Shown piece by piece: positions 39,351 through 41,353 of a stretch of DNA of 64,000 bases. Below the pieces are notes generated by a model. The model was not told the origin of the DNA, searched no databases, and was given only the letters and a program-made list of their open reading frames with translations. Origin of the DNA: a phage. Location of the stretch: sequence record PZ445439.1; one strand, given 5' to 3'. How positions within the stretch are numbered: position 1 is the first letter of the stretch; each line of letters starts with the position of its first letter. The position numbers were made by a program, and so were the translations under genes.

Positions 39351-39929
39351 TTAATTACCACGGGCTGCATTAGCAACGGCGTAAGCGTACTGAACATTAG
39401 CGTCCTTAAACGTACCTTTAGAGGTATCTATTTCTGCCTTAAAGCCGCCTTTAGCCATAACATCGGCAAATTCTTTACGGAAAGCCATTGCATCAAGACC
39501 TTTCCATGATGATTTGTGCTTGGCGAATTCAAGACCAGCGTAGTTGACAGCCTTAGCTAATTTATTATCAATGACCCATTTACCGGCTTTAGGCACAAAC
39601 TTCGGGCCTTTTTGTTTAGAGAACAGTTTTAAATTCCAGCGACGAAGATCACTGTCGGCTTTAACAAAAGCTGCGTCTAAGTTACTAGCAACAACATCTT
39701 CAATATGAGCAAATTTAAGTCCGTCAACTTCAATATTTAAATCGGTACGCCAGCGAAGTCCTTCCCAAGCGAAAGCTTTAAAATCGGAAGCTTTTGTAGC
39801 TAAGTATCGTTCAAGTGGAGCAGTTTTAGGGTCAAAGCCGTTTCCACCACGATAGTTCCACTCGTCCTTATTAATGCCTTTGGCCTTTACTACAGAAGCT
39901 TCAGCAATAAATTCTTGATACGTTTTCAT
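39351..39929 (-). CDS. ipIII: Internal protein III (capsid-targeted)
   Basis: 192 aa; N-terminal MKTYQEFIAE capsid-targeting sequence. Confidence 0.8.
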   Translation of the reverse strand: MKTYQEFIAEASVVKAKGINKDEWNYRGGNGFDPKTAPLERYLATKASDFKAFAWEGLRWRTDLNIEVDGLKFAHIEDVVASNLDAAFVKADSDLRRWNLKLFSKQKGPKFVPKAGKWVIDNKLAKAVNYAGLEFAKHKSSWKGLDAMAFRKEFADVMAKGGFKAEIDTSKGTFKDANVQYAYAVANAARGN

Positions 39930-39954
39930 TTTGTTCCTATTGATTTAATTTATG

Positions 39955-40269
39955 TTATTCTTTAGGGAAGTTTTTAGAGTATGCATCATAAAGTTTATTA
40001 CCGATGCGACGGAAGACTTTAGCTGCAAAACGGTTTTCAGGGTTTTTAATCATGATTTGCATCATGTAAGTTCCTGCATCCGAAAGAGCTTCTTCATAGT
40101 ACCCATTAATTTCTTTAAGAGTCCTACGTTTACCGCCAGGACCGTCAACAGTAATTTTCCATTTACCTGTAGAAGTGCGGCTCGGTGGCTCAACTTGTTC
40201 AATCCAAATATAACCACCTTCAACGCGTTGGTTGGCGGATTCTGCAATAAATTCTTGATACGTTTTCAT
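39955..40269 (-). CDS. ipII: Internal protein II-like (capsid-targeted)
   Basis: 104 aa; MKTYQEFIAE N-terminus. Confidence 0.7.
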   Translation of the reverse strand: MKTYQEFIAESANQRVEGGYIWIEQVEPPSRTSTGKWKITVDGPGGKRRTLKEINGYYEEALSDAGTYMMQIMIKNPENRFAAKVFRRIGNKLYDAYSKNFPKE

Positions 40270-40299
40270 TTTTGTTTCCTTGTTTGTTTTGATAGAGTA

Positions 40300-40329
40300 A
40301 TTATATCATATTAATACTTAAGCGTAAAC
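40300..40329 (-). promoter_or_regulatory. Early promoter (-35 GTTTAC, -10 GATATAAT)
   Basis: Upstream of ipII. Confidence 0.5.
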
Positions 40330-40332
40330 TGT

Positions 40333-40593
40333 TTAAGCTTTACCACCAGAAATAATTCCGAAGTTGTTAAAATCATATCCAATATCGTCAACATCTACTT
40401 TAGGGCTTGCTACAACATAAGCAATTTCACTACGTTTTGCATAGGTGTTTATTTCTCTACCATCGCCGCCTAGGAAAGAATACCCATTACGTTTTAATGA
40501 GCCAAAATCTTCGGCATCACCAACGAAAGCTTTAACTTTAAATTTGGGGCCTTTGGCATCTGCTTCAGCGATAAATTCTTGATACATTTTCAT
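40333..40593 (-). CDS. Additional internal-protein-like ORF with capsid-targeting N-terminus
   Basis: 86 aa; MKMYQEFIAE. Confidence 0.6.
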   Translation of the reverse strand: MKMYQEFIAEADAKGPKFKVKAFVGDAEDFGSLKRNGYSFLGGDGREINTYAKRSEIAYVVASPKVDVDDIGYDFNNFGIISGGKA

Positions 40594-40599
40594 TTTTCC

Positions 40600-41013
40600 T
40601 TAGTAAATTGATTTACCATAGTATTTGTACCAAGTAGGGCGTTGAGCAATTTTTTCATCTAAGCGAGCTTGACTTATCGCAATGGACGCTTCGGACGGGA
40701 CATAATTATTACGAAATTCGACAGGGATGTCGGAAATATCCTGGACAGTCGTGTCCTTGATTTTGAAACCACGTTTCAAGCATTCAGCGATTAGCTCGAT
40801 TTGACGTAAACGTAAAAATTCGAGTTTGTCGTAAAAGAATGTTACGTGACCTGTGCCTAAGATAAATGTTGGAGAGATTTTAAAATCCTTTACACGTTTA
40901 CCGTTTTGAACATGTTTACGGACTGCACCAAATACGCGTGGTAATTCACGATACTCAGCCATAAGATGTTGGTCGGTCAGTTCAGAAACAAGTGTTAAAT
41001 TGATACGAGTCAT
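40600..41013 (-). CDS. denV: Endonuclease V (pyrimidine dimer DNA glycosylase)
   Basis: 138 aa from [12 protein letters not shown]; matches recalled T4 DenV. Confidence 0.93.
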
Positions 41014-41038
41014 AATTTCCTCCAAGTAATTGATGAAT

Positions 41039-41070
41039 GTATAGTATCAAAGTCCTTGGAGGAAGTAAAC
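41039..41070 (-). promoter_or_regulatory. Early promoter
   Basis: -35 GTTTAC and -10 GATACTAT upstream of denV. Confidence 0.5.
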
Positions 41071-41071
41071 A

Positions 41072-41353
41072 CTATTTTTCTGAAGCGCCTGAAATATATT
41101 TTTCAAGACGTTGTTTCATTAGCGAGCCGTTCTTAGCGATTTCTTCTGGTTTATCGCACATACGCAACAAGGCTTCAAGCTTAACGATATCGCTGGTACG
41201 TTCAAATTTGCGAGTATCTATCTTACTAGCAAGTTCAGAAATACGTGCTAATAGACTTTCAGCTTCAACCAAAGCTGCACCTAGCTTAGTTGCAAATGTG
41301 TCAGTAGCTTCGTTAAGAATAGATTCTGATAAAAATTCACTATATGTTTTCAT
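41072..41353 (-). CDS. Capsid-targeting-sequence protein, second N-terminal subtype
   Basis: [16 protein letters not shown], same N-terminal family as ORF 45539..46012. Confidence 0.5.

Follow-up and report, generated by a model that had tools for sequence, protein, structure and literature searches.

Candidate exchangeable internal-protein genes of a T-even phage and a probable unannotated family at a third cassette site

We analyzed a 64,000-nucleotide stretch of phage DNA (sequence record PZ445439.1; the whole stretch is called the window here, and positions are counted from its first letter) that carries six open reading frames (ORFs) whose products begin with a leader resembling the capsid-targeting sequence of T-even internal proteins (IPs). 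We consider it quite likely that these ORFs, designated ip192, ip104, ip86, ip93, ip157, and ip77, are exchangeable internal-protein genes of a T-even phage. In this explanation, the aromatic residue at position 4 and the Phe at position 7 would tether each protein to the scaffolding core of the prohead, and the prohead protease gp21 would cut after the Glu of an [I/L]-x-E motif: at residue 10 in all six and, in two longer leaders, at residue 15 as well. Once processed, the product, in most cases basic, would remain with the DNA inside the head and enter the host with it at infection, where it would most probably neutralize a specific host defense, as Ip1, Ip2, and Ip3 each do to a distinct GmrSD. 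Cassettes with unrelated payloads would come, go, and replace one another through homologous recombination at short repeats, which may be the leader-coding DNA of about 33 nucleotides (nt), early-promoter blocks, or a terminator hairpin.

IPs are polymorphic, bear a capsid-targeting sequence, and serve in defense (PMC3012670; PMC2839356). At least 10 IP variants were known from Repoila (1994) and more than 30 later (PMC12373910; PMC2839356). The proteins are of renewed interest, since Ip1, Ip2, and Ip3 are now known to block one GmrSD type IV restriction enzyme apiece, each a different one (Silas et al. 2025, PMC12373910).

Results

Six ORFs with leaders of the internal-protein type

We scanned the window in six frames, from every ATG, GTG, and TTG start, for the pattern M-[KR]-x-[YF]-x-x-F-[ILVM]-x-E. 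Exactly six ORFs matched, every one of them on the minus strand and of the narrower form M-K-x-Y-x-x-F-[I/L]-x-E; they are the same six for which an initial annotation, made from the sequence alone, had claimed a start in the style of internal proteins. Four of them begin with MK(T/M)YQEFIAE, as that annotation had stated: ip192 (39351..39929; 192 amino acids [aa]; MKTYQEFIAE then A), ip104 (39955..40269; 104 aa; MKTYQEFIAE then S), ip86 (40333..40593; 86 aa; MKMYQEFIAE then A), and ip77 (49764..49997; 77 aa; MKTYQEFIAE then T). The second form that it had recognized, MK(T/S)Y..FL.E..LNEA, is present in ip93 (41072..41353; 93 aa), whose long leader ends in SILNE before A and contains two L-x-E sites, and in ip157 (45539..46012; 157 aa; scan start MKSYAQFLNEAVLNEA), whose leader reads MKSYAQFLNE, then AVLNE, then A. 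A program-made ORF list extends two of the six to upstream TTG or GTG codons; the ATG starts at MK... agree with the annotation of relatives, and the proteins read from them have exact matches over their full length.

According to the summary in PMC9026906, mutagenesis by Mullaney and Black (1996) placed the targeting determinants of the IPIII leader at positions 4 and 7 and its processing determinants at positions 8 and 10. Each of the six proteins has Y4, F7, I/L8, and E10, with Ala, Ser, or Thr next, so the description of the leaders as internal-protein-like holds at every mapped position. The gp21-type motif [I/L]-x-E plus a small residue is likewise found in all six: IAE before A, S, or T in the first form, FLSE before S and ILNE before A in ip93, and FLNE before A and VLNE before A in ip157. 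The ip93 and ip157 leaders thus carry a second L-N-E site before A, at residue 15. Extra cleavage sites in propeptides are thought to help fragment clearance (PMC5694885). The T4 proteins IPI, IPII, and IPIII have leaders of the same form (MK-x-[Y/F]-x-E-F-...), 10 to 19 residues long, with [I/L]-x-E at the end and a small residue after it; the propeptide of T4 IPI, MKTFKEFTSTTTPVSTITE, has 19 residues and is followed by A.

Are the leaders of ip93 and ip157 capsid-targeting sequences at all? If not, both could be cytoplasmic late proteins whose N termini resemble the others because of an amphipathic helix or a constraint on translation initiation. The leader DNA of ip93 and ip157 is not conserved, and ip157 lies outside the canonical IP loci and is annotated as hypothetical in all 40 of the records sampled across the ranking of 511 phage records in which it was found (tblastn); these facts would suit such proteins. 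The relatives of ip157, which matches phrog_2280, argue otherwise. A profile search over 1.8 billion representatives gave only 13 relatives, and among those of full length, with identities of 50% or less, most retain positions 4, 7, 8, and 10 while the neighboring residues vary (MLKFNEFLAE, MINFSDFLNE, MKSFSSFLNE, MLEYSEFLKE, MKFKEFLAE). The exception is P0108 (MISFNEFVDG...ITE), which differs at positions 8 and 10. Moreover, the Glu is followed by Ala, Ser, or Gly, as at known gp21 cleavage sites; the genes stand in a late promoter context; and the family of ip93 already bears the annotation internal head protein. A cytoplasmic role for the two proteins is very unlikely in our estimate, and the conservation of the ip157 leader is the strongest sequence evidence for capsid targeting.

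Other leader variants exist. In phage W143, the ipI locus holds two tandem genes (L015, positions 21341-21649 and 21710-21982; 102 and 90 aa; phrog_2667 and phrog_7673) that share the leader MKTFKEFINEA with identical leader DNA; the window has one gene there, with MKTYQEFIAE. Because the leaders of phrog_2280 relatives, T4 IPI, and W143 vary in this way, the proposed division into two N-terminal subtypes, although both forms are present, is oversimplified, and the subtypes are better described as points on a continuum.

One leader on unrelated payloads

Escherichia phage PaulHMueller (Bas45; a 170-kb Tequatrovirus) has proteins identical to all six over their full length. The mature part of ip192 is 94.5% identical to T4 IPIII (BLASTP), and the protein matches phrog_5341 "internal virion protein" (E=4.6e-117) and is identical to bas45_0237 of PaulHMueller; its mature form would have 182 aa and an isoelectric point (pI) of 9.65. 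On this evidence ip192 is the IPIII orthologue. The 90% cluster of ip104 includes "Ip10 [Enterobacteria phage Pol]" (CAA84455.1), which comes from Repoila's 1994 study, and the protein matches phrog_3966; a Pfam match of ip104 to CsgH was below threshold (E=0.07) and was disregarded. ip86 matches phrog_2667 "internal head protein" (E=7.8e-21) and bears the same name in the IME340 annotation. ip93 matches phrog_3499 "internal head protein" (E=1.2e-46), and members of its cluster, among them RB69ORF127c, carry that name. ip77 matches phrog_8111 "internal virion protein" (E=4.2e-52), and the PaulHMueller entry is named "internal head protein"; it sits in the ipI locus, between 57B and trna.4, and is not a homologue of T4 IPI, to which BLASTP found no similarity. 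Five of the six, all but ip157 (phrog_2280, "unknown function"), are therefore already catalogued as internal proteins, or under the name Ip10, in PHROG, RefSeq, or GenBank.

The homology search of mature domains that the initial annotation had proposed as a check found one leader on unrelated payloads: BLASTP among the mature domains and the T4 IPs gave no relationship except that between ip192 and IPIII, and a Pfam search of all six proteins found no domain. One leader joined to unrelated payloads is the defining picture of T-even internal proteins. Likeness to the T4 IPs extends to small size, to mostly basic composition, and to genome positions beside e/denV and 57B; the differences are that five of six payloads are unrelated, that the gene order differs, and that T4 has no gene at the ip157 site. 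The GmrSD inhibitors Ip1, Ip2, and Ip3 (Bair and Black 2007; PMC12373910) are the likely functional class for the payloads of the window. By BLASTP, orthology to a proven GmrSD inhibitor is limited to ip192, which is orthologous to Ip3, and does not extend to the other five. Because of this orthology, ip192 should inhibit an ECOR17-type GmrSD.

The ip86 gene, which starts 7 nt past the denV stop codon, is intact in the window. In UFV13, Lutter, and SF2-1, 1-nt indels frameshift it or split it into two short coding sequences (L016, 13309-13561; L019, 1094-1349; L018, 1159-1344). These broken copies suggest that the cassette is decaying in those relatives.

Leader-coding DNA repeats and a cassette indel

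The initial annotation had described the DNA that encodes the MK(T/M)YQEFIAE leaders as nearly identical over about 25 nt at four sites. Four copies are indeed present; the positions given for them were off by 2 to 6 nt, and the conserved stretch is longer, about 33 nt (AAAATGAAAACGTATCAAGAATTTATTGCTGAA). A 23-mer, AATTCTTGATACGTTTTCATTTT, occurs at 39910, 40250, 40574 (one mismatch), and 49978, with 0 occurrences expected (100 shuffles). The repeat (family D1 in our repeat scan) comprises copy 1 in ip192 (39900..39933), copy 2 in ip104 (40240..40273), copy 3 in ip86 (40564..40597; 3 differences from copy 1 in 30 coding bases), and copy 4 in ip77 (49968..50001), all on the minus strand. Copies 1 and 2 bound a 340-bp cassette. 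We also considered the second leader form as a repeat at the DNA level and rejected it, since the longest runs shared by the ip93 and ip157 leaders are only about 8 nt.

Does the four-fold repeat have a role in recombination, or is it a by-product of one decapeptide encoded under strong A/T codon bias? The usage of codons in the window alone predicts identity at 5.2 of 9 codons, and the four leaders show 6 to 9 of 9; swaps at the ipI and ip157 loci, moreover, use other repeats, which would also fit a by-product. Against this, the rare Thr codon ACG (frequency 0.10) is found in three of the four leaders (P ~0.001 for all three), whereas the leaders of T4 ipII and ipIII share the codons ACA and GCC instead. 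This contrast points modestly to homogenization or exchange within the genome.

The position of an indel in two independent phages bears directly on the question. In an alignment of the ip86–ip104–ip192 region, Shigella phage SF2-1 and phage Lutter lack the 340-bp ip104 cassette, and 340 bp is the distance between the leader repeats of ip192 and ip104. In both phages the promoter, ribosome-binding site, and leader of ip104 (…AAGGAAACAAAAATGAAAACGTATCAAGAATTTATTGC) are joined directly to the ipIII payload (TGAAGCTTCTGT…), and the junction therefore lies inside the leader repeat. Homologous recombination between two leaders is expected to yield just such a product. Many of the nearest relatives, SF2-1 and Lutter included, cover about 90% of the query in two or three pieces, with a gap of about cassette size. 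The suggestion that the leader DNA could act as a recombination handle is thus borne out by the junction in SF2-1 and Lutter, and we regard a mere by-product of codon bias as quite unlikely. The leader is not a universal swap boundary, a possibility that we rejected because the cassettes of the ipI and ip157 loci use other repeats.

Cassette exchange at the ipI locus

The payload of the ipI locus differs from phage to phage. The segment of the window that differs there from T4 and UFV13 is bounded by two direct repeats of an early-promoter block (GTTTAC...GTGATACTATTACCCTATCAA; repeat family D3), one upstream of ip77 (50023..50063, minus strand) and a second copy downstream of it (49723..49763, minus strand). 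Conserved promoter and stem-loop blocks that flank IP genes have been proposed to drive shuffling (PMC2839356), and that paper, by Arbiol et al., credits an arrangement of promoter blocks like this one to Repoila et al.

The comparison of loci across genomes, another check put forward in the initial annotation, showed ip104 and ip157 to be absent in some relatives, ip86 to be broken in several, and ipI payloads to differ. The ip genes appear to be non-essential, with a presence that varies among close relatives.

Two further observations can be added. Phage W143, 97.6% identical to the window in this region, has an extra T4-type ipII downstream of ipIII (L015, 12445-12747); in the window, ipIII is followed directly by the vs.8 homologue. 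Further along, a 31-nt direct repeat (48631-48661 and 49086-49116; 94% identical, 455 nt apart) flanks a 126-aa ORF of phrog_4301, unknown function (48654-49034). The repeat contains GATAATGATTCTTTATGCTAAAGTA, the start of a 99-aa trna.2-like ORF (48358-48657), and the upstream copy is a truncated duplicate of the start of that gene. The 126-aa ORF looks like another single-gene insertion bounded by repeats.

A third site occupied by phrog_2280 genes

ip157 lies between an e.8 homologue (45034-45309) and the rnaC-like region with tRNA-Arg. Its cassette of 555 bp has its own late promoter and a duplicated terminator hairpin at the edges (repeat family D6, minus strand). The upstream copy (46054..46089) closes the rnaC/tRNA transcription unit and marks the left edge of the cassette; the downstream copy (45499..45534), 36 nt long, 94% identical, and 555 nt away, marks the right one. 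T2 and SHFML-11 have one hairpin with no cassette between copies, and T4 has no gene at the site. In T6, only about 56% of the region is matched, in two pieces as in T2, and ip157 is absent.

Depending on the phage, the third locus holds zero, one, or two leader-bearing genes, all of phrog_2280, whose relatives have 154 to 205 aa. Two tandem genes are found in UFV13 (157 and 154 aa) and in Mosigvirus ChristianSchoenbein (188 and 187 aa), and in other contigs a 205-aa member adjoins tRNAs and e.8. The part of ip157 behind the leader consists of two helical domains with a Lys/Pro/Ala-rich linker, KPAPKADPK, between them, and the pI is 9.6. An AF2 model built from an alignment of eight sequences is all-helical (pLDDT 76.7), and a Foldseek search of the PDB with this model found no hit at E<=0.001, with generic helical bundles (e.g., ferritins) as the only similarities; we drew no conclusion on function from the model. 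The conserved leader and the cassette setting suggest that phrog_2280, with ip157, is probably an unannotated internal-protein family at a third cassette site. The fuller proposal, to which we give about even chances, is that phrog_2280 is an unrecognized family of capsid-targeted, injected proteins that makes this site a third hypervariable IP locus of T-even and related phages, and that these proteins, with two domains and a DNA-binding-like linker, may hit a defense other than the GmrSD enzymes that Ip1, Ip2, and Ip3 target.

Packaging need not imply injection. ip93 and ip157 could follow the same targeting route and serve as accessories of the prohead core or of DNA condensation, possibly degraded or retained there. 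The Lys/Pro/Ala-rich linkers, which resemble DNA-binding tails (KPAPKADPK in ip157 and, in the 205-aa member, AKP-type repeats over about 40 residues), would suit such accessories, as would the basic, all-helical character of ip157, its lack of a fold match to a known inhibitor, and the wide occurrence of phrog_2280. The ip157 locus is dispensable, however, being empty in T4, T2, T6, and SHFML-11, and its copy number and payload vary, a pattern of arms-race accessories and not of structural proteins; T4 IPs are associated with DNA too, yet act as inhibitors. We consider packaged but non-injected accessories unlikely and retain injected proteins as the preferred explanation for ip93 and ip157.

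The cassettes described from Repoila et al. 1994 (EMBO J 13:4181) and Comeau et al. 2007 likewise vary in the number, order, and identity of leader-bearing ORFs and have flanking early-promoter blocks. That work knows just two loci for IP genes, and the absence of such genes elsewhere was stressed by later authors (PMC2839356). ip157 differs in lying at a third site, with a terminator hairpin and a late promoter at the cassette edges in place of early-promoter blocks. A parallel is offered by the PeSL cassettes (Arbiol et al. 2010, PMC2839356) of RB49/phi1-type phages: there, as in the window, single small ORFs go in, drop out, or are exchanged between repeated elements, which in PeSLs are promoter/stem-loop elements. 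In the window, T4-type early promoters, a leader-coding segment, or a rho-independent terminator serve as the repeats, and they are not homologous to those of PeSLs.

Expression context and genome setting

Several of the genes stand in a context that would allow late expression. Two T4 late-promoter boxes (TATAAATA) lie upstream of the lysozyme gene e (41852..41872, minus strand), and the ATG of ip93 overlaps the stop codon of this late gene (ATGA), so ip93 is probably co-expressed with it. The boxes upstream of e could drive e, ip93, and the downstream ip genes late. A further TATAAATA box (46049..46056, minus strand) lies 37 nt upstream of the ip157 ATG, directly after the terminator hairpin, and UFV13 is arranged likewise. 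ip104 and ip77 have early-type promoters only, that of ip104 being a T4-early-type promoter (TTTACG-17-TATAAT, with TG; 40300..40328, minus strand), and late read-through from the e promoters into the ip genes is plausible. TATAAATA matches the window 11 times, with 10.75 matches expected and hence no excess over chance; the late boxes are therefore supportive context and not proof.

The window has the gene block vs.8 – denV – e – nudE – e.2 to e.8 – rnaC/D – tRNAs/segB, continuing with trna.2 to trna.4 – ipI – 57B – 57A – gene 1, as in T4. Across positions 39000-42000, the closest database records are 95 to 98% identical. denV (40600-41025) lies upstream of three ip genes, and the order here is e-ip93-denV-ip86-ip104-ipIII, compared with e-ipIII-ipII-denV in T4. 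A gene for a segB-type GIY-YIG homing endonuclease (46483-47148) lies within the tRNA cluster, the same as in T4. ARAGORN found eight tRNAs in this cluster, including a tRNA-Met(cat) where T4 has tRNA-Ile annotated.

Discussion

What the sequence shows is the leaders and DNA repeats, the edges of the cassettes and how these vary among relatives, the late-promoter setting of ip93 and ip157, and the orthology of ip192 to IPIII. For the five proteins other than ip192, we infer packaging, cleavage, and injection, as well as anti-defense activity. The initial annotation had named the extra members as candidate injected anti-defense effectors, and this candidacy fits the GmrSD literature (PMC12373910), with ip192 as the member that has a proven counterpart. 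Several points weigh against the explanation of the six ORFs as exchangeable internal-protein genes. Ten further ip genes gave no inhibition of five additional GmrSD systems (PMC12373910), and an anti-GmrSD role therefore cannot be assumed protein by protein. A literature search found no virion proteomics or N-terminal sequencing for the six proteins or for phrog_2280. The pI values of ip86 (6.4) and ip77 (5.7) are near-neutral or acidic, unlike those of the classical basic IPs, and the codon identity among the leaders exceeds the expectation from codon bias only moderately. Finally, IP genes are said to occur at two loci only (PMC2839356), and ip157, unlike the other five, is at neither; we regard this two-locus rule as a positional convention and not as a functional requirement.

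The interpretation in the initial annotation was right and mostly not new, because polymorphic leader-bearing IP genes, a class known since 1994, and the inhibition of GmrSD by IPs have already been described. Five of the six genes are catalogued IP variants that add nothing conceptually, and the idea of cassette shuffling itself dates from 1994. The abstract of the study by Repoila et al. from that year is said to have noted a conserved leader motif and to have proposed recombination between repeated blocks. The new elements are modest: an explicit junction in a leader repeat, and phrog_2280 as a probable unannotated IP family. The former provides a clean sequence-level case of a cassette indel with its junction in the leader-coding repeat. 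The latter adds to the list of candidate injected anti-defense effectors and to the pool for screens of the kind run in 2025 with a GmrSD panel. Packaging of ip157, if it occurs, would require a revision of the view that IP genes are confined to two loci.

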